32,000 bases of DNA from an uncultured Christensenella sp. (lineage in GTDB: Bacteria; Bacillota; Clostridia; Christensenellales; UBA1242): positions 1 through 32,000 of the forward strand of contig CATKZB010000011.1 of NCBI GenBank assembly GCA_949841595.1, in the 5' to 3' direction. Shown one piece after another: positions 306 to 20,523 of this stretch; within the stretch, counting starts at the first letter, position 1; every line of letters starts with the position of its first letter. A program made the position numbers and the translations under genes. The notes beneath the pieces are model-generated. The model saw only the letters and a program-made list of their open reading frames with translations. It did not search any database and was not told the DNA's origin.

Positions 306-391
306 GCCGAAGTGGCGGAATGGCAGACGCACAAGACTCAAAATCTTGCGAGGGCAACTTCATGTGGGTTCGACTCCCACCTTCGGCACCA
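306..391 (+). tRNA. tRNA-Leu (anticodon CAA), class II with long variable arm, CCA encoded
   Basis: 86-nt cloverleaf folded by hand: acceptor GCCGAAG/CTTCGGC, anticodon stem CAAGA/TCTTG with loop CTCAAAA, 15-nt variable arm, T arm GTGGG-TTCGACT-CCCAC, discriminator A plus CCA. Confidence 0.9.
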
Positions 392-1559: not shown

Positions 1560-1588
1560 TTGAAATTTGGAAAGAACTTTGATAAAAT
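1560..1588 (+). promoter_or_regulatory. Promoter of avd / TR-RNA / RT
   Basis: TTGAAA (1560-1565), 17-nt spacer, TGaTAAAAT (1580-1588). Confidence 0.55.
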
Positions 1589-1606
1589 ATAATTAAGGAA
1601 AAAGGA

Positions 1607-2175
1607 ATGAACAAAGGAAGAAAATCAGTAGGCATACAGCAAGTGATTCCAGCAATTTCTGACAACAAAGAAAATTTGGAGGACAGGGTTGCAACGGCAA
1701 AAGGAGTTGCTTATGCTGAAAACAAAAAATATAAAGAAAACAAAGCGATTGCAGAAGAGATTCCAAAGATTGACGAAGGTTTGAAGATAAGATCAGGGAC
1801 AAGTGAATTGTTGGTCATAACAAAAGCGAAAAAACTGACTGCATATGTTGTGACAGTAACTGAAAAATCTCCAAAGCGTTTTAGAGCTGTTTTTGTGAAC
1901 AGAATGCAAAACTATTGTTTGGATACACTGGAAAATCTTATTGAAGCAAATTCATTGAGAATGGACAGTTCTAAAAACAGAGAGAAGAGAAAAGAATGTC
2001 AGCACAAGGTATATTTAAAACTGAAACTGCTTGGCTATATAACATTTCTTGCTTTGGAGAGTGAATGTATCTTAAAAAACAATATGAGCAAATTTCGCTT
2101 CAGCTTTCAGATTGTTTAAATTTGTTGGTTGCATGGCGAAAAAGCGATTCAGAGCGCCTTGGCAAAAAGACCTAA
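1607..2175 (+). CDS. avd: DGR accessory variability determinant (Avd-like four-helix-bundle protein), interrupted by a frameshift at A-run 2074-2079
   Basis: The ORF 1607-2119 contains KKLTAYVVTVTEKSPKRFRAVFVNRMQNYCLDTLENLIEAN. The expected last helix KKQYEQISLQLSDCLNLLVAWRKSDSERLGKKT* is in the -1 frame (stop at 2173-2175). The frames join at tt_A_AAA_AAC. Confidence 0.7.
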
Positions 2176-2265
2176 GGGGCAAAGTGAGCGAATATGCGCT
2201 TTTATGATGGATTAACTGTGGCGACACATTAATTAAGACAAGATTTAATAATAGGCGCAGCTTGT

Positions 2266-2375
2266 TTGGCTGCGCTCTGCTTAATCTAAGAACAATGTAA
2301 ACTATGTAAACAATGACGGCGACCTTAACGACAATAATTCAAACAAAACTAATTTAGGCCTGCCTCCAGATTTGC
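2266..2375 (+). repeat. DGR template repeat (TR)
   Basis: 110 nt matching 3949-4061. Read in the VR frame it gives W L R S A * S K N N V N Y V N N D G D L N D N N S N K T N L G L P P D L, which is rich in AAC/AAT codons. It is non-coding and lies between avd and the RT. Confidence 0.85.
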
Positions 2376-2392
2376 CTTAAAAAACAAAAAAC

Positions 2393-3604
2393 TTGTTTAA
2401 TCGGCCAGAAGTGTTTGCATCCAAGTGGAGCAATCGAGTGCTTAAGGCAAAGGAAATCTTGTCTTTTCCAAGTTCTCTTGCAGAATTGGAAGAATATGGT
2501 CATCTTGACAACCAATGCGAAATGCTTTGGAAGTTTACCCACAAGGAGGATGACCACAATTTTAAATACCAGGAGTCGAGAAGAGTGTTTGAAGAAGCAT
2601 TTACATTTGAAAAATTATTAGCTGCTCACAAAAAGTGTAGATGTTCTAAACAACACAAGCGAGCTACGATTTCCTTTGAAATAAATTTGGCAACAAATCT
2701 TTCCAGCATTTCTCAAAAAATTCTTTCTGAGAAGTTTAAATTGAGTGAATATCGAGTTTTCAAGATTTATGAACCCAAAGAGAGATTGATTGAAGCTTTG
2801 CCATATAATGACAGAGTGGTTTTGATGGCATTTTGCACAAACATCATTGAGCCAAAACTCGAAAAAAATTTGATTTATGACAATGTGGCTTGCAGAAAGG
2901 GGAAGGGCACATTGTTTGGTATCAAAAGACTACACAAGTTTTTGCATAACTTTTATCACAAATTTGGCGAAGATGGTTATTTTTTGAAATGCGATGTGAG
3001 AAAATATTTTCAAAGCATAAATCACGAGATTTTGCTTAAGAATTTGCATAAAACGGCTTTGGATGCAGAAGATTTGAAGTTTGTTGTAATCATTTTAAAC
3101 AGCAAAAACAGCGAAAGTGGAGTGGGACTTCCAATTGGAAACCAAACAAGCCAGTGGTTTGGACTTTTTTATTTAAACAAAATTGATCGACTTGTTAAAG
3201 AAACTTTGGGTGTGAAATATTATGTCAGATATATGGATGATATGATTTTGGTGCATCATGACAAAGAGTTTTTGAAGTTTTGCAAAGAACAAATTGAAAA
3301 GTGTGCAAATGAACAACTGAAGCTTCAACTCAACAGCAAAACTCAGATTGGCAAACTTTCAAATGGCATAGACTTTCTGGGTTTCAGACACATTCTAAGT
3401 AAAAATGGTAAGGTGCTATGTTTTTTGAGAGGTCATGGCAAACGGCGACTTACAAAAAACATGAGAAGTTTGCATAAACTGGAAACTGCTGGGCTTATTG
3501 ATGAAGAATATAAAGCTGTAAGGCTGAATGCCTATCAAGCACATTTAAAGCATTCTCATTCAAAAAAGTTGTATCTGAATTTGAAATCGAAATACAAATT
3601 ATAA
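2393..3604 (+). CDS. DGR reverse transcriptase (ORF opens at TTG 2393; the first ATG at 2522 is the more likely start)
   Basis: YEPKERLIEALPYNDRVV, FLKCDVRKYF, GLPIGNQTSQWF (IGNQTSQ at 3134-3154), YMDD (3230-3241), GIDFLGFR. No maturase or endonuclease domains. Confidence 0.88.
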   Translation: MFNRPEVFASKWSNRVLKAKEILSFPSSLAELEEYGHLDNQCEMLWKFTHKEDDHNFKYQESRRVFEEAFTFEKLLAAHKKCRCSKQHKRATISFEINLATNLSSISQKILSEKFKLSEYRVFKIYEPKERLIEALPYNDRVVLMAFCTNIIEPKLEKNLIYDNVACRKGKGTLFGIKRLHKFLHNFYHKFGEDGYFLKCDVRKYFQSINHEILLKNLHKTALDAEDLKFVVIILNSKNSESGVGLPIGNQTSQWFGLFYLNKIDRLVKETLGVKYYVRYMDDMILVHHDKEFLKFCKEQIEKCANEQLKLQLNSKTQIGKLSNGIDFLGFRHILSKNGKVLCFLRGHGKRRLTKNMRSLHKLETAGLIDEEYKAVRLNAYQAHLKHSHSKKLYLNLKSKYKL

Positions 3605-3667
3605 CGCATTTTCGGCATTATATAGTTAAGACTTGGGTGTAACTGAAAAATTTTTTACAAAAATGTA

Positions 3668-3696
3668 TTGAAAATAAGTTGTTTTTGTGATAGAAT
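3668..3696 (+). promoter_or_regulatory. Promoter of the DGR target operon
   Basis: TTGAAA (3668-3673), 17-nt spacer, TGaTAGAAT (3688-3696). Confidence 0.55.
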
Positions 3697-3739
3697 ATTT
3701 TTATAAATGCAAACATGCAAAAGAAAAAGGAGAAATATT

Positions 3740-5830
3740 ATGGCAATAAAAGTCCTTCCTATTGAAATTGGAAATACAGATGAAAATCAAGAAATGGGAA
3801 ACAAAAAATTCAACACAACAGATGCTGTGATTTTGGATTCTTATGATGATGTTAAAAATATCAACTCAAATTATAGAAAACGAAAAGCGACAGATTATGC
3901 AGTTATGAACGGCTGTTGTCTTGGGAGAAGCAATTCGAATGCCTATTATTGGCTGCGCTCTGCTGTCTCTCTGGGCTATGTATTCTGTGTAAGCTTTGAC
4001 GGCGACCTTTACGTCTACTATTCTTCCATCATCACTGATTTAGGCCTGCGTCCAGCTTTGCACCTTGATCTTAAATCTTTTATCTCCACGCGAAGCGTGT
4101 CGGGCACGGTGCATTATGATCCAAATGATAATTTATATAAAGTGCAAATGGGAGAATTCCCTCAAACTTATGTTAAAGACTCAGAAAAACTTGAAAGATT
4201 ATTCAAAAATGGCAGTTTGAGAAAAACTGGAAATACATACACTGGTTATATGAAAGACGATGGCAGTTTTGCTCAACATGAAGAATTTGTGTATAATGGT
4301 CAAAAATATGCCAGAGTCATTGTCAAAAAAGCTGATAGTGACAGCAAATTTAAGGATGGAACACTAGAGCCAGAAACTGGATCTGTGTGTTGGGCAAAGG
4401 TTGAACCAATATCTTTCAAAATAAGAAATTGGGATGATTTGCCAAAAGAAATCAATCCGAATGGAACTGGAAAAGCCAAATTTGTGAAGGTTGAAGCAGA
4501 AGATGCGATTTTGAGTGGGCTTCCTTTCTATCCAGAAAATGGACAAACAGAGCACACAATGTGGCAAAACAGTCTCGTTCGTGCTTATTTGAACGGATAT
4601 AATTTACATAAAGAAATTGACAAAGGAAACGGAAACAAAAAATTTAAAGCCTCCAGAAACTTTGATTTTGAAGGCAAGGGTTTCTTATACGAAGCAGGCA
4701 TAACTGCAGAAATGATTGCAAGTGCAACTGTGGAAGAAGATGAGATGACTGACAAAAAGGTCAATCCGAATCCATATGGTTTTTCTTTTGACGAACTTGA
4801 CAACGATCAACTTTTGAAACTTTATGTTGGTGCAAATGCATCAATCTTTTTGCATGGACCTTCTGGAGTTGGAAAGTCAGGGAGAGTGAAACAACTTGAT
4901 CCTACAGCAACAAGAATCACATTAAGACCTCAAATGAACCCAGAAGAAGTTGACGGAACTCTTGACAGAGAAACAGGAAAATTTGTTCCACCACTTTGGT
5001 ACACTCAACTTTGTGAAAAATGTCAACAAGAGCCAAACAGAAAACATGTGCTTTTTATTGACGAACTTACAAACGTGAAACCTACAGTGCAAAGTTTGAT
5101 CTATTCGATTGTTTTGGACAGAGCAGGAAAAGACGGACTTTGGCCATTGCCTGAAAATGCTGTTGTGGTTGCTGCTGGAAATGAAAATGAAGACAATTTG
5201 GCAGCTTATCCTCTTACAAATGCGTTGTTCAGAAGATTTAGTCACATTTATTATAAGGTTGATAAGTCAAGTTGGCTGGATTGGGCAACTGGCGTGTCAA
5301 AGATTCATACTCAAGTTTGTGAAACAAAAGAAACAGAACCAAGAGCAAGAATTCATCCTGCAATTGTTTCTTATATTATGAGCAGAGATGAAAACGTGCT
5401 TAATCAAGATTTGGATGAAGAAAATCCACAAATTGTTACAGACCCTCGTAAGTGGGAAATTGCAAGCAACGTGCTTTATTCAACGAAAAATCCTCGTGCA
5501 CTTCTTCCTGCAATAGGGGAAAATTTAACAGAAGATTTTGTTGATTTTGTTCAAAGCATTCATGTCAGTGTGGAAGATGTTTTGAAGGGAAATTTTGACA
5601 AACGAGATTTTCTTGAAATGAACATTAGCCAAAAATATTCTTCTTTGTTGGGACTTATTTCTGCAAAGGAAGAAGAACTTCCAAAAGTGCGAGGATTCAT
5701 TTCTGACACTTTGGGCAAAGAGCTTTTGGCTTCTTATGACAGTATTTGGGTGAGAAATGATCCTGAAAGAGCACAAATAATTGCTGAAACCAAGCTTATG
5801 ATGAAGGAGGACAAAGATGTTGTTAAATAG
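3740..5830 (+). CDS. DGR target protein: N-terminal C-type-lectin-like variable domain fused to a MoxR-like AAA+ ATPase
   Basis: The ORF track starts at 3707, but AGGAG lies 7 nt before ATG 3740. YYWLRS...GLRPALHLDL is the typical VR-encoded CLec end. Walker A GPSGVGKS (4856-4879), Walker B LFIDE (5051-5065), VVAAGNE...ALFRRF. No signal peptide or TM segment seen. Confidence 0.8.
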   Translation: MAIKVLPIEIGNTDENQEMGNKKFNTTDAVILDSYDDVKNINSNYRKRKATDYAVMNGCCLGRSNSNAYYWLRSAVSLGYVFCVSFDGDLYVYYSSIITDLGLRPALHLDLKSFISTRSVSGTVHYDPNDNLYKVQMGEFPQTYVKDSEKLERLFKNGSLRKTGNTYTGYMKDDGSFAQHEEFVYNGQKYARVIVKKADSDSKFKDGTLEPETGSVCWAKVEPISFKIRNWDDLPKEINPNGTGKAKFVKVEAEDAILSGLPFYPENGQTEHTMWQNSLVRAYLNGYNLHKEIDKGNGNKKFKASRNFDFEGKGFLYEAGITAEMIASATVEEDEMTDKKVNPNPYGFSFDELDNDQLLKLYVGANASIFLHGPSGVGKSGRVKQLDPTATRITLRPQMNPEEVDGTLDRETGKFVPPLWYTQLCEKCQQEPNRKHVLFIDELTNVKPTVQSLIYSIVLDRAGKDGLWPLPENAVVVAAGNENEDNLAAYPLTNALFRRFSHIYYKVDKSSWLDWATGVSKIHTQVCETKETEPRARIHPAIVSYIMSRDENVLNQDLDEENPQIVTDPRKWEIASNVLYSTKNPRALLPAIGENLTEDFVDFVQSIHVSVEDVLKGNFDKRDFLEMNISQKYSSLLGLISAKEEELPKVRGFISDTLGKELLASYDSIWVRNDPERAQIIAETKLMMKEDKDVVK
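3949..4061 (+). repeat. DGR variable repeat (VR)
   Basis: 113 nt aligned to TR by hand. About 24 substitutions fall at TR adenines, 3 do not, and VR has one extra codon. It encodes WLRSAVSLGYVFCVSFDGDLYVYYSSIITDLGLRPAL. Confidence 0.85.
4086..4110 (+). promoter_or_regulatory. GC-rich hairpin about 25 nt downstream of VR (candidate DGR target-recognition structure)
   Basis: ccacgc-gaa-gcgtg (4087-4099), with the alternative cgtg-tcggg-cacg (4096-4108). It is a conspicuous GC island inside an AT-rich gene and is absent downstream of TR. Confidence 0.45.
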
Positions 5831-6200
5831 TAAAGAAATTATTGAGTTATCAAAAATATCACCAGTTCTTGTGGTTGGTGCAAAAACTGAAGATTTTAAA
5901 AATGCCACTGTTTTGAAGGCAAATATACCTTCAAAAAGTTTGGGAGTGGTGAACACTGCAACAGGAATTAAGACTCCTCTTTGGCTTTTTCAAATTTTGA
6001 AGGGTGATGCAAGTCATCAGATTGTTATCGAAGAAATTGATAGCATTGATGCTTATTCTCAAGAAAAATTTTATGAACTTTTGAAATATAAAACAATAAG
6101 CAATATTGATTTGCCAGAAGATTGCAACATCATTGTGACTGCAAAAAAATTGGAAAATGTTTCTGCAAATATCGCTTGTTTATGTCAAATTGTGAAATAA
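5817..6200 (+). CDS. Small hypothetical protein, translationally coupled to the target gene; possibly a degenerate AAA-like domain without a P-loop
   Basis: ATG overlaps the end of the upstream gene by 14 nt, with AAGGAGG 6 nt upstream. IVIEEIDSIDAYSQEKFYELLKYKTISNIDLPEDCNIIVTAK resembles the Walker B to sensor-1 region. No GxxGxGK motif. Confidence 0.6.
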   Translation: MLLNSKEIIELSKISPVLVVGAKTEDFKNATVLKANIPSKSLGVVNTATGIKTPLWLFQILKGDASHQIVIEEIDSIDAYSQEKFYELLKYKTISNIDLPEDCNIIVTAKKLENVSANIACLCQIVK

Positions 6201-6210
6201 GAGGTGATTT

Positions 6211-7617
6211 ATGGCAGATTTTGATTTGGCAACCTTAAAAAGAAAGATGCTCAGAAAATACCCTGCTTTTGGGGCTGAAATTAATGATGTTAATTACAAA
6301 GTTTTTGAAAATGGTAAAGAAGTTTCAACAGCTTGCACTGATGGGAAAACTATTTATATCAATCAAGGATTTATGGAAAAAATGTCAGAAGAAGAACAAG
6401 TGTTTATTCTTGCTCATGAAGTGAGTCATATTGCACTTAATCATATAATGAGATGTAAAGATAAGGATATGAAACTTTGGAATATTGCAACGGATGCTGT
6501 TATCAATCAATATCTGAAGCAAGATGGTTTGCCTATGCCTGAAGGTGCGATTGATTTTGAAAATGAAAATCATTTTGATGCAGAAGAAGTCTATGAAAAA
6601 TTGTTGGAAGAAAAACAAAAGAAAGAAGAACAATCAAAACAGCAACAACAAAACGGACAAGAGCAACAATCTGGTCAAGAACAAAATGAGCAATCACAAA
6701 ATCAACAAACCAGTTCTGAAGAAAGTGAGAATGGAAATTCTCAACAAGAAAATAAAGAAGAAAACTCTCAAGAGCAAGACGAAGATATGCAAATGGGACA
6801 TGATGACCACTCTATGTGGAAAAAAGCAGTTGAAGAAGCTGAAAAAGAGAAGGAAAAGCATTCTAAAGAAAAAGGTGAGTCACAAGAAAAGAAAGATGAA
6901 CCAGAGGAAAAGATTGTTAGTGAAAAAGACTTTTTCAAGAAAAACGAAGAAGAAAAAGTTAGAATTGCTGAAGAGATTATGAAAAATTTGAGCAGTGAAA
7001 GACGGGGCAATGGTGGAGAAACTCAACTTGTGGAGTTTTCTGATATCGGGGATGCTGGAAAGCCTGTTGTGAATTGGAAAAGAATGCTTATCAGAAATCT
7101 TGAACTTGAAGATGAAGCTTGGGGACATAAGTTTTCTGACAAATCTAATAATTATGCTTCCAGAATTGAAGATGTTGAATATGATGAAAAAGCTGAGACT
7201 GAAATTATTTTGGACACTAGTGGTTCGGTGAGTGTGAATCTTCTTAAGAATTTTTTAAGACAAGTTAAAACTATACTTAAAAATTCAACTATAAAAGTGG
7301 GGACCTTTTCTGATGATTTTTATGGTTGGACGGAAATAAAAAGGGAAGCTGATATTGACAGTTTAAGGCTTTATGTTGGTGGTGGAACAAATTTTGATGC
7401 AGCAAGCAGAGCATTTTCAAAACGAAAAGATGTCAACAAAATTTGTTTTACTGATGGTCAAGATGGTGGAAATGCTGAAATTAGAGAACCAAGGAAAGAT
7501 ATCACATGGATAAGTTTTGAAAATCCAAATTTCAAACCAGATAATGGAAAAGTTATGTTTGTTCCAGAAAATTTGATAAATATGGAAATGGAAAAAAGTG
7601 ATGGGAATGTCAAATAA
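6211..7617 (+). CDS. vWA-domain protein with N-terminal HExxH metallopeptidase-like domain (DUF2201-like MoxR partner)
   Basis: ILAHEVSHIALNH (HEVSH at 6415-6429), WNIATDAVINQYL. A Q/E/K-rich linker of about 120 aa. MIDAS-like LDTSGSV (7213-7227). RBS AGAGGTG. Confidence 0.75.
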   Translation: MADFDLATLKRKMLRKYPAFGAEINDVNYKVFENGKEVSTACTDGKTIYINQGFMEKMSEEEQVFILAHEVSHIALNHIMRCKDKDMKLWNIATDAVINQYLKQDGLPMPEGAIDFENENHFDAEEVYEKLLEEKQKKEEQSKQQQQNGQEQQSGQEQNEQSQNQQTSSEESENGNSQQENKEENSQEQDEDMQMGHDDHSMWKKAVEEAEKEKEKHSKEKGESQEKKDEPEEKIVSEKDFFKKNEEEKVRIAEEIMKNLSSERRGNGGETQLVEFSDIGDAGKPVVNWKRMLIRNLELEDEAWGHKFSDKSNNYASRIEDVEYDEKAETEIILDTSGSVSVNLLKNFLRQVKTILKNSTIKVGTFSDDFYGWTEIKREADIDSLRLYVGGGTNFDAASRAFSKRKDVNKICFTDGQDGGNAEIREPRKDITWISFENPNFKPDNGKVMFVPENLINMEMEKSDGNVK

Positions 7618-7711: not shown

Positions 7712-8719
7712 ATGATTACTGAAAGTTTGAAGAGAAAAATTTTAAGCAAAGATTTTGCAGAAAGATTGAATGAAATTTGTCTGGAATCAAATAGTTTTGA
7801 ATTTTATAAAGAATTGAAAGCTGACTTGCCATTTCTTGACAAGTTTGTCAGAAATATGAAAAAAGATTGCAAAATGATTAATGTTTTTTCTAAAAGCAGG
7901 AGTTTGGAAGAAATGAACTTTCATGCTATGAAATTTTATGAAAATTTGGATGCTGAAATTTATGATCGATTGAAATTCTTATTGTATGACAAATCCACAC
8001 AAGTTTCTGTTTGTGATCCTGTTGAAAAATTTGTTTCTTCTTCTGCCTCACTTTTTGAAACTAATAAGAATGGTATGAGAATTGTTTCTTTGCATCCCAA
8101 AATGGATTTTGAAGGTCTCTTTTGTTATGTGCATGAATATGCACACCTGATGTGTGAGGATTTTGTTAATTTTAAAATGAATAACTTTGAAAACAACATT
8201 TCTGAAGTTCCTAGTCTTTGCATGGAAAAGGTTTATGCAAATTGGCTTGTTAAAAATGGGATTATCAGTATTGATGAATATAATTGCTTTAAACTTAGAG
8301 AAATAACTACCTTTGTTAGTTTTGTTGGAAAATTGTTTTTGGATGCGACGTTTTTTGAAATGGTAAAACCTCCAGTTACAGAACAAAAATTGCTTATGGT
8401 TGAATATATTTTTAATAATCATCCGATATTGAAAGATAATTATGAAGAGTTTTTGTTGAGACTTAATGAAATTGTGACAGAAAATAAACCTACCACTTAT
8501 ATTTTTAGATATGTTGTTGGAGAACTAGTGGGGGGGGTGTTTTTGGATGACTTCAAAAAGGATAGCGTTTCTGCAGTAGAAAGATATAAAAAATTGATTA
8601 AAAATATAGACAAGTTGAAATCTGATGAGGCTGTTGAAACTCTTATTGGAAAAGATTATAAAAAACGAATTGAAAAGAAATATTTAAATTCAAAGTTATC
8701 AAGAAATAAAGCTGATTAA
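7712..8719 (+). CDS. HExxH protein, possible short M3-like metallopeptidase
   Basis: YVHEYAHLM (HEYAH at 8132-8146), with a downstream ISEVPSLCMEK that resembles the M3 third-ligand region. Contains a G8 tract at 8530-8537. Confidence 0.45.
   Translation: MITESLKRKILSKDFAERLNEICLESNSFEFYKELKADLPFLDKFVRNMKKDCKMINVFSKSRSLEEMNFHAMKFYENLDAEIYDRLKFLLYDKSTQVSVCDPVEKFVSSSASLFETNKNGMRIVSLHPKMDFEGLFCYVHEYAHLMCEDFVNFKMNNFENNISEVPSLCMEKVYANWLVKNGIISIDEYNCFKLREITTFVSFVGKLFLDATFFEMVKPPVTEQKLLMVEYIFNNHPILKDNYEEFLLRLNEIVTENKPTTYIFRYVVGELVGGVFLDDFKKDSVSAVERYKKLIKNIDKLKSDEAVETLIGKDYKKRIEKKYLNSKLSRNKAD

Positions 8720-19745: not shown

Positions 19746-20523
<778 letters not shown>

Follow-up and report, generated by a model that had tools for sequence, protein, structure and literature searches.

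What is the reverse transcriptase locus at positions 1560-5830 of a contig from an uncultured Christensenella sp., does it still work in this genome, and what kind of protein does it act on? Diversity-generating retroelements (DGRs) are, to our knowledge, the sole prokaryotic system for targeted protein diversification, and their characterised targets are mostly surface or virion proteins that bind something extracellular. An earlier note, made from the letters of the DNA, had read the locus as a DGR with avd, template repeat (TR), reverse transcriptase (RT) and target in that order. We analysed the whole window of 32,000 nt that contains it (assembly GCA_949841595.1, contig CATKZB010000011.1, positions 1 to 32,000 of the forward strand; coordinates below are those of the window). 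We found that the region, with the operon downstream of it, is very probably a chromosomal DGR plus its target operon. The adenine bias of the repeats, the affinity of the RT and the confinement of variation in related genomes to the variable repeat (VR), on which that interpretation stands, all held on checking, and the element belongs clearly to the known family of DGRs.

The direct repeat between TR and VR was found where it had been described. Its best alignment has one 3-nt gap, an extra TCT in the VR at 4014-4016 beside the AAC-G of the TR, and 25 substitutions, 23 of which fall at TR adenines (A>T 12, A>C 6, A>G 5). With 38 adenines in a 110-nt TR, this enrichment has a hypergeometric p of 1.1e-11; the bias that had been claimed survived realignment, and the count given for it, about 24 of 27, is corrected to 23 of 25. 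One of the 23 (TR A2370 vs VR C4056) is a fixed TR/VR difference of every related cassette and not a product of mutagenesis. The two non-adenine mismatches are T>G at 3965 and C>G at 4050. The latter is a change in the TR, C2364, that is private to the lineage of the window; the TRs of two close relatives, L001 and L002, have G. Read in the frame of the VR, the TR includes a TAA stop codon and is rich in AAC and AAT, as had been noted (10 of 22 A-containing codons). Indels are reported in ~7% of DGRs, mostly adjoining AAC (PMC5758913), and the one-codon insertion of this VR beside AAC belongs to this recognised minority. A blastn search of the window with the TR returned no second VR.

Comparison of strains then provided a direct view of where the target gene varies. 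L001 and L002 are members of the same 90% cluster from different sequencing runs, both with an intact avd, and they were compared at the DNA level. The window TR is 97-99% identical to their TRs, while the VRs differ. Between L001 and L002 the target gene carries 22 differences in 2121 nt, and all of them (22/22) lie inside the 109-nt VR, 19 at TR adenines and 3 at a T directly before AA; the earlier note had proposed looking in the VR for variation confined to A-templated positions, and related genomes display variation restricted both to the VR and to such positions. Where the two TRs differ, each VR has the base of its own TR. Since each VR thereby copies private non-A variants of its own template, information flows from TR to VR. 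Across the 14 sequences of the target's public 90% cluster, differences likewise lie mainly in the VR, and the C-terminal halves are almost invariant. The non-adenine changes of the window (3965) and of L001/L002 (VR repeat positions 15, 58 and 59) fall on the same two TR sites. At both sites a T precedes an AA doublet by one or two bases (CTTAA at the first), and one of these Ts opens the TAA codon in the VR frame. Such recurrence suggests context-dependent misincorporation beside adenines, not random drift.

The RT carries the motifs that had been listed for it, IGNQTSQ at 3134-3154 and YMDD at 3230-3241, and the reported absence of maturase and endonuclease domains agrees with Pfam, which shows RVT_1 only. 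The mechanical open reading frame (ORF) opens at TTG 2393; the probable true start is GTG 2585, because L001 has a TAA stop at the equivalent of 2567-2569, followed by AGGAG and GTG. When all PDB sequences were searched, the best match was 8ub7 (E 5.9e-36, 127 bits), which is 100% identical to brt of Bordetella phage BPP-1. Group II and retron-type RTs reached at most 39 bits (E about 1e-8), ~90 bits below Brt. Judged by these similarity scores, as distinct from a phylogeny of curated sets, the RT goes with DGR enzymes rather than with the retron or group II sets, as had been predicted. Homology to Brt runs across fingers and palm, with LPIGNQTSQ opposite IPIGSLTSQ and RYMDD opposite RYMDD, and the RT also matched PHROG 1423 (E 1.7e-101). 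In a phage collection the closest RT was that of phage nd12 (41.9% identity), with further matches in Vibrio VP585, Faecalibacterium FP_Brigit and Bordetella phages; the best phage relatives are DGR phages. The NCBIfam group II, retron and Drt models all scored far below their cut-offs. A group II intron was rejected on TIGR04416 (87 bits against a cut-off of 300), on the RVT_1-only architecture and on Rfam, which, run on the window at the gathering threshold and at E <= 1, gave no intron RNA. A retron was rejected on retron_St85_RT (46 bits against 235), on the same Rfam runs, which gave no retron RNA, and on the adjoining non-coding element, which is a TR with a matching VR.

Relatives of the target were found at 79 loci in a scan of one genome per species. 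Carriers are mostly gut metagenome-assembled genomes (MAGs) labelled Clostridia, Eubacteriales or Christensenella, together with a group of gut Alphaproteobacteria. In ~20 of the 79 loci, from species-level genomes of two phyla, avd and RT lie directly upstream in the same order, and in all of these cassettes the TR sits between avd and RT and the VR at target residues ~65-120. Their TR/VR mismatches are nearly all at A (for example 18/18, 19/19, 16/16, 23/23 and 25/25). TR and VR differ in length by 1, 2 or 6 nt in L004, L029, L030 and L076; a difference of 1-2 nt would frameshift the VR unless compensated nearby. Many other loci hold paralogous operons of target, 127-aa ORF and DUF2201 gene with no avd or RT within 7 kb (L005, L006, L009-L012, L020, L031, L048-L068 and others). 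Several genomes have three or more target paralogues (examples are MGBC144555 and MGBC157798; in MGBC157798 two of them share a contig). Two family members of 1030-1190 aa, P0041 and P0058 from the L035 and L037 region, have two tandem DUF6273-like plus WQNS modules N-terminal to a single ATPase.

We found that the candidate cis elements are conserved with the retroelement. Every related cassette has GATTTGC at the end of the TR and GCTTTGC at the end of the VR (A2370 vs C4056 in the window), which we read as the distinction between IMH* and IMH, the sites of initiation of mutagenic homing. All DGR-linked relatives also have a GC-rich hairpin, with a loop of GAA or GCA, at the corresponding point after the VR, and its stem shows compensatory changes (GGCGC/GCGCC, CGCGC/GCGCG, CGCAC/GTGCG and GCCC../..GGGC). 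It is not present in the paralogous loci that have no DGR, which links it to the retroelement and not to the protein sequence. In the alphaproteobacterial loci L069, L071, L073 and L076 a further hairpin with a stem of 7 perfectly paired bp, TGCCTCC-ATC-GGAGGCA, begins in the IMH-like GCTTTGCC. In the RNA, the 3' end of the TR (2371-2378, TTTGCCTT) pairs with the spacer at 2444-2451 (AAGGCAAA). Alignment and RNAalifold found this helix kept in 15 of 15 cassettes from two phyla, with double changes from CG to UA in six sequences and from UA to CG in two. A second spacer hairpin shows many compensatory changes in the same alignment, and two spacer blocks are invariant, GCAAAGGAA at 2447-2455 and TCTTTTC at 2462-2468. 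No Rfam family matched the TR-spacer RNA at either threshold. These elements match the IMH, the downstream cruciform and the TR-spacer RNA of BPP-1, and by that analogy they would serve the same functions here. Both of the promoters that had been proposed, with the pattern TTGAAA-17-TGnTAnAAT, exist as sites and are among the best-scoring in the region; the region as a whole has no excess of promoter-like sites (28 vs 24 +/- 5 in shuffles). The site at 1560-1588 agrees with the pattern at 10 of 12 positions and has an extended -10 TG, and L001 retains both of its hexamers with several substitutions in the spacer. Both sites are putative promoters by their match to the pattern.

An Avd-like ORF had been placed ahead of the TR. 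A homologue is there, and in the window genome it is frameshifted by a 1-nt deletion in a homopolymer, so that Avd is 170 aa long instead of the 189 aa of L001 and L002. The intact avd of relatives ends in translation with ...KKQYEQISLQLSDCLNLLVAWRKSDSERLGKKT. The window Avd matches NCBIfam DivGenRetAVD (NF033474) over profile positions 1-81 of 104 (E 3.2e-8, under the curated cut-off), the PHROG family 'Avd protein of DGR' (E 2.5e-11) and Pfam bAvd (E 0.0025). The 189-aa Avd of L001 spans the whole profile, 1-104; the truncated form is without positions 82-104, the last fifth. An identical 170-aa Avd is on record from the MAG of the window, a second MAG, and the ENA and Logan assemblies of run ERR3199641, and because independent assemblies give the same product, the A6 allele is not an accident of assembly. 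The contig from ERR3199641 (strain L084) differs from the window by five single-nucleotide polymorphisms (SNPs), at 154, 186, 3840, 3851 and 3876. Despite these, its TR and VR are identical to those of the window, extra codon included. The avd-intact pair (L001/L002) therefore differs only in the VR within the target, and the avd-broken pair (window/L084) differs, but not in the VR. Because the TR change C2364 is uncopied, the VR indel is uncorrected and the VR is identical in L084, there has probably been no homing since the frameshift in avd. On balance we favour the view that this copy is a recently inactivated or switched-off DGR, with Avd truncated by a deletion in the A7 tract and a VR that looks frozen. 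Of the five SNPs, three (3840, 3851 and 3876) fall close together in the target gene, in a 37-nt stretch located ~70-110 nt 5' of the VR; local recombination over a short tract, or selection acting on the constant portion of the variable domain, could account for the cluster.

The target is likeliest to start at ATG 3740, with AGGAG 8 nt upstream, and an alternative call gives a 707-aa form from ATG 3707. Residues 5-110 match DUF6273 (Pfam E 6.7e-7) over profile positions 60-171, the C-terminal two thirds, and the VR falls at the C-terminal end of this domain. The C-terminal half is a MoxR-class AAA+ ATPase (Pfam AAA_5, the dynein/midasin-related subfamily, E 6.1e-5; PHROG 1297 ATPase, E 7.8e-38) in which Walker A (GPSGVGKS at residue 373) and Walker B (residue 438) are both intact. 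In an AlphaFold2 model of the ATPase part, the top Foldseek matches were NorQ, CbbQ (CbbQ2) and CHU_0153, all MoxR ATPases, and the full-length model gave AAA+ matches only. The region from residue ~120 to ~330 is beta-rich and belongs to no family; residues 1-330 are modelled as one compact unit (predicted local distance difference test score 93, predicted template modelling score 0.92). Foldseek gave no neighbour for this unit below E 0.02 in PDB or BFVD, and a phage DUF6273 protein was reached at E 0.47. By eye, the conserved motif VEPIxWxIxNW ... MWQNSxxRxYLNG, which comes after the DUF6273 match, looks like the N-terminal half of canonical DUF6273 (nd12: HSNILQWLNS). A circular permutation of DUF6273 was considered, and Pfam run on residues 121-330 gave no DUF6273 match, which leaves that idea unsupported. 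A VR at the end of DUF6273 is the position reported in DGR targets of gut phages (PMC11792537, PMC10743442, bioRxiv 2024.10.15.618418), and DUF6273 is described in the literature as C-type-lectin-like.

Two genes follow the target. The 127-aa ORF lies beside the target in many related loci (24-58% identity). It has no match in Pfam, NCBIfam, PADLOC or PHROGs, and BLASTP against the ATPase half found no similarity, so that a degenerate AAA domain was rejected. The partner protein matches Pfam DUF2201_N (E 1.3e-30) and DUF2201 (E 3.2e-10) and PHROG 1314 (E 6.6e-61). It has the HExxH motif HEVSH at residue 69 and DTSGS, a motif of the metal ion-dependent adhesion site type (DxSxS), at residue 335; its gene is syntenic downstream of the target in most related loci. 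No hydrophobic segment was found in the target, the 127-aa protein or the DUF2201 protein. Since it has none and an ATPase must be cytoplasmic, the target is presumably a soluble cytoplasmic protein. After the DUF2201 gene a 335-aa ORF (7712-8719) has an HExxH motif, HEYAH, and no family. A tblastn search of the 79 related loci from other genomes returned no homologue of it, and it probably stands outside the system.

Table 1. Features of the retroelement, its target operon and the nearby tRNA gene in the window.
Feature	Position	Strand	Details
tRNA-Leu(CAA)	306-391		1.2 kb upstream of avd, lipoprotein gene between
Promoter-like site for avd-TR-RT	1560-1588	+	TTGAAA, 17 nt, TG-n-TAAAAT
avd as read here	1607-2119	+	170 aa, cut by frameshift
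A6 homopolymer in avd	2074-2079	+	site of 1-nt deletion (A7 in relatives), from alignment to L001
Out-of-frame remainder of avd	2080-2175	+	~32 last codons; intact-frame stop TAA 2173-2175
Template repeat (TR)	2266-2375	+	110 nt, non-coding, 38 adenines
IMH*-like 3' end of TR	2357-2375	+	GGCCTGCCTCCAG-A-TTTGC; A2370 is the fixed TR-specific base
Spacer of DGR RNA, TR to RT start	2376-2584	+	~210 nt, non-coding
DGR reverse transcriptase (RT)	2585-3604	+	339 aa, GTG start; ribosome-binding site AGGAG 2571-2575
Promoter-like site for target operon	3668-3696	+	TTGAAA, 17 nt, TG-n-TAGAAT
Target gene	3740-5830	+	696 aa, ATG 3740; ribosome-binding site AGGAG 3728-3732
Variable repeat (VR)	3949-4061	+	113 nt, codons for residues 71-108 of the 696-aa target
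IMH-like GC-rich 3' end of VR	4043-4061	+	GGCCTGCGTCCAG-C-TTTGC; encodes conserved GLRPAL motif
GC-rich hairpin CACGC-GAA-GCGTG	4087-4099	+	26 nt after VR, within coding sequence
Conserved 127-aa ORF	5817-6200	+	overlaps target stop by 14 nt
Partner protein	6211-7617	+	468 aa; Zn-metallopeptidase, acidic low-complexity linker, von Willebrand factor type A (vWA)-like domain

The setting of the element is chromosomal, with a lipoprotein gene upstream and recJ, relA/spoT, a radical-SAM gene and pnp downstream, and the window contains no capsid, tail, terminase, integrase or lysis genes. The earlier note had put the element next to a tRNA; tRNA-Leu(CAA) does lie upstream, and the two are not directly adjacent. 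The 3' end and terminator of this tRNA (371-424) recur at 1478-1531, as a copy with 89% identity over 54 nt just before the avd promoter, in the same layout in L001 and L002. Ahead of the copy, from 1404, is a stretch of about 75 nt with pairable ends (GTGGGAGTC ... GACTCCCAT), and the 1400-1490 element had no Rfam match at the gathering threshold or at E <= 1. The layout looks like the att-site scars of a tRNA integration hotspot. As att sites bounding a DGR island the two copies were rejected, because they bracket only the Big_3 lipoprotein gene (704-1306) and have no credible third copy downstream. Cassettes of other species lie just downstream of tRNA-Pro, tRNA-Met or tRNA-Thr (L072 4508-4584 and 10977-11053; L074 4642-4718; L004 2713-2788), and L072 has another tRNA (Arg) after its DUF2201 gene. 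These positions hint at mobility of the entire cassette as one island associated with tRNA genes; no integrase was noticed. A transposase of insertion-sequence type with an rve integrase core was seen in L003 (CAPKSR010000003.1, 183-1250), ~1-2 kb upstream of the window start and near tRNA-Leu, a further sign of a recombination-prone neighbourhood. At 19759-20523 the window encodes a collagen-repeat protein with a BclA C-terminal domain of the exosporium type, which fits a host among spore-forming Clostridia.

Could the repeat have arisen instead by simple duplication of part of a gene, as a decaying copy of the 5' region of the target, next to a retron, group II or defence RT that has no connection with it, its adenine bias coming from AT-rich composition? 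Adenine makes up 35% of the TR in an AT-rich genome, the NCBIfam group II, retron and Drt models do give weak sub-threshold matches, and PADLOC has many models of DRT-type RTs. Composition is already in the hypergeometric test, however, at p = 1e-11, and a duplication would not account for the asymmetry by which the TR is stable between strains while the VR varies, nor for the same bias in ~20 independent cassettes. The RT scores given above also speak for a DGR enzyme, and the Rfam runs gave neither group II intron nor retron RNA for the window; we regard such a duplication as extremely unlikely. A phage or prophage DGR, with a variable protein for virion assembly or host recognition as in tentaclins or jumbo-phage MoxR plus peptidase-vWA pairs, has several points in its favour: the nearest phage RT in nd12, which has the same gene order and a target with an N-terminal DUF6273; the PHROG families that hold both the ATPase and the DUF2201 protein; the tRNA 3'-end duplication just upstream; and the proposal that the MoxR and peptidase-vWA pair is a virion-assembly chaperone (PMC7824862). 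Against it stand the chromosomal flanks and the absence of phage genes from the window. No phage record carries the fused target, only the ATPase half matching at 23-27% identity, and when 2.9 million IMG/VR contigs were scanned with the family alignment, none held a relative. An ATPase protein with neither signal peptide nor transmembrane segment is also unlikely as a receptor-binding protein, and we judge a phage origin of this kind very improbable.

A chromosomal DGR might alternatively still be active here, if slippage on the A tract, in transcription or in translation, overcame the avd frameshift or if the tract were a reversible phase-variation switch by which the population moved back and forth between diversifying and fixed states. 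The break lies exactly in a homopolymer (A6 vs A7), a classic substrate for slippage; the RT ORF, TR, spacer helix, IMH and hairpin are all intact; and the 23 A-site changes in the VR show extensive past activity in the lineage. The strain pairs point the other way, since the two A6 strains, 5 SNPs apart, have identical VRs whereas two A7 strains of comparably low divergence differ at 22 VR positions. The retained one-codon insertion and the uncopied C2364 are what is expected without later homing, and a tract of A6/A7 is short for efficient phase variation. Continued activity of this copy thus appears rather unlikely, and we return to an element that has been inactivated or switched off.

How would such an element work when intact? 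Following the BPP-1 paradigm, avd, TR, structured spacer RNA and RT would form a single transcription unit, and a complex of RT and Avd would make cDNA from the TR-spacer RNA, misincorporating opposite template adenines. The cDNA would then replace the VR of the following gene, guided by the GC-rich IMH and the hairpin just 3' of it. Up to 36 A-templated positions in 22 codons would be open to rewriting, with 19 residues recodable and ~1e18 variants, and the rewritten positions would fall in the N-terminal DUF6273 domain of the target. By domain logic, the variable domain may be a ligand-binding module that sets the specificity of the MoxR motor. MoxR ATPases act together with a vWA adaptor, and here the adaptor would couple the MoxR ring to the metallopeptidase, giving ligand-dependent remodelling or cleavage as the output. 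We tentatively propose that the variable domain is a programmable intracellular receptor coupled in this way to proteolysis or remodelling, that is, a sensor of the conflict or immunity type, a possibility that we put somewhat below even. A conflict or immune role is favoured because DGR-diversified vWA-MoxR systems are analogous (PMC7159879, PMC10907252).

A bolder form of this proposal, which we offer as speculation, is that the cassette of avd-TR-RT, DUF6273-MoxR, small ORF and metallopeptidase-vWA is a distinct, undescribed class of anticipatory intracellular immune receptor in unicellular gut anaerobes. The DGR would write the substrate-recognition domain of the ATPase, ligand capture would license the partner protease, and the A7 tract of avd would be an off-switch that freezes a useful specificity. 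If the variable domain picks what the motor and protease act on, the locus would encode a compact programmable machine for recognition and processing. Strains with an intact avd and VR-only variation, set beside strains with a frameshifted avd and a frozen VR, form a natural control, and the dependence of diversification on Avd is directly testable in public metagenomes. We did not find described in the literature a variable domain fused N-terminally to a MoxR ATPase, with a metallopeptidase-vWA partner, in gut Clostridia and Alphaproteobacteria. No paper was found that names both DGRs and DUF2201, nor any that cites 8UB7, in a coverage of the literature that is incomplete, and the supplement of a large catalogue may list such targets.

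Several points weigh against these interpretations. The activity of the element is deduced from comparing genomes, and the contrast between a frozen and a variable VR consists of one strain pair of each kind. Even the intact Avd of a relative scores 46.5 bits against an NCBIfam curated cut-off of 80. The C-type-lectin assignment comes from the Pfam match to DUF6273 and from the literature, and carries no significant Foldseek match. Paralogous operons without a DGR indicate that hypervariation is not essential to the protein family. Neither the target nor the 127-aa, DUF2201 and 335-aa proteins matched any defence system in PADLOC, so the suggested defence role is an analogy and not a finding. 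A role in chaperoning and assembly or in processing, as suggested for the phage MoxR and peptidase-vWA pairs (PMC7824862), would be equally compatible with the domains.

Among known systems, the prototype DGR of BPP-1, in which avd, TR and brt diversify mtd, is matched in these features: the RT is homologous, with IGxxxSQ and YMDD; an Avd homologue is present, and the TR lies between avd and RT; mismatches are adenine-specific; a GC-rich IMH ends the VR and is followed by a GC hairpin with a GAA-type loop; and the 3' end of the TR pairs with the spacer RNA. Unlike in BPP-1, the target here is downstream of the RT and not upstream, and the VR lies near the 5' end of a long gene, which makes IMH and hairpin coding. 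The target is a cytoplasmic ATPase where that of BPP-1 is a tail-fibre tip, the setting is chromosomal, and avd is broken. Closer in layout are the rare tentaclin DGRs of gut phages nd4 and nd12 (PMC10743442), in which the RT is followed by the target, the TR lies just upstream of the RT and the target has an N-terminal DUF6273 with the VR at its C-terminal edge; in nd12, 14 of 14 TR/VR mismatches are at A. Tentaclin is a phage structural or adhesion protein with a full-length DUF6273 (profile 1-172) and then Ig-like/Fn3 domains. Here, in contrast, profile positions 60-171 stand at the extreme N-terminus, followed by the unassigned beta-rich region and the MoxR ATPase, with no Ig or Fn3 domain, and no phage genes lie near the element.

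The ATPase and its partner have counterparts elsewhere. A two-gene module in group 2.2 jumbo phages pairs a MoxR ATPase with a vWA protein that likewise has its metallopeptidase N-terminal (Iyer et al. 2021, PMC7824862), and the MoxR-vWA chaperones NorQ-NorD and CbbQ-CbbO share the MoxR plus vWA module, NorQ and CbbQ being nearest to our ATPase model. These pairs have no hypervariable receptor domain or DGR, and the roles proposed for them are cofactor insertion, enzyme activation and virion assembly. A variable domain and an AAA-type ATPase in one polypeptide are described for targets of the Candidate Phyla Radiation (a 2017 study cited in PMC10907252; 'Midasin/P-loop' in Wu et al. 2018, PMC5758913). 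As far as those descriptions go, the ATPase motif there is upstream of the VR (category g, PMC5758913), the reverse of the order here, and the lineages differ.

Another parallel for the operon is the group of DGR vWA-MoxR 'VMAP ternary' conflict systems of cyanobacteria and gammaproteobacteria (PMC7159879, PMC10907252), which also combine a DGR with a MoxR ATPase, a vWA protein and a peptidase. Their variable lectin-like domain is a predicted intracellular sensor (Kaur et al. 2020, PMC7159879; Dore et al. 2024, PMC10907252). The FGS/CLec domain that varies there is at the C-terminus, joined either to the vWA protein or to a separate target, whereas here the variable domain is N-terminal on the MoxR ATPase, and the vWA protein here carries a DUF2201_N metallopeptidase. 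No VMAP component was recognised, the third gene, of 127 aa, matching nothing in the four collections named above, in a comparison that included no VMAP-specific model. Their hosts are multicellular bacteria and ours are MAGs of gut Clostridia and Alphaproteobacteria; if the proposed reading is true, the idea of a DGR-diversified antigen sensor would reach from multicellular bacteria to ordinary gut anaerobes.

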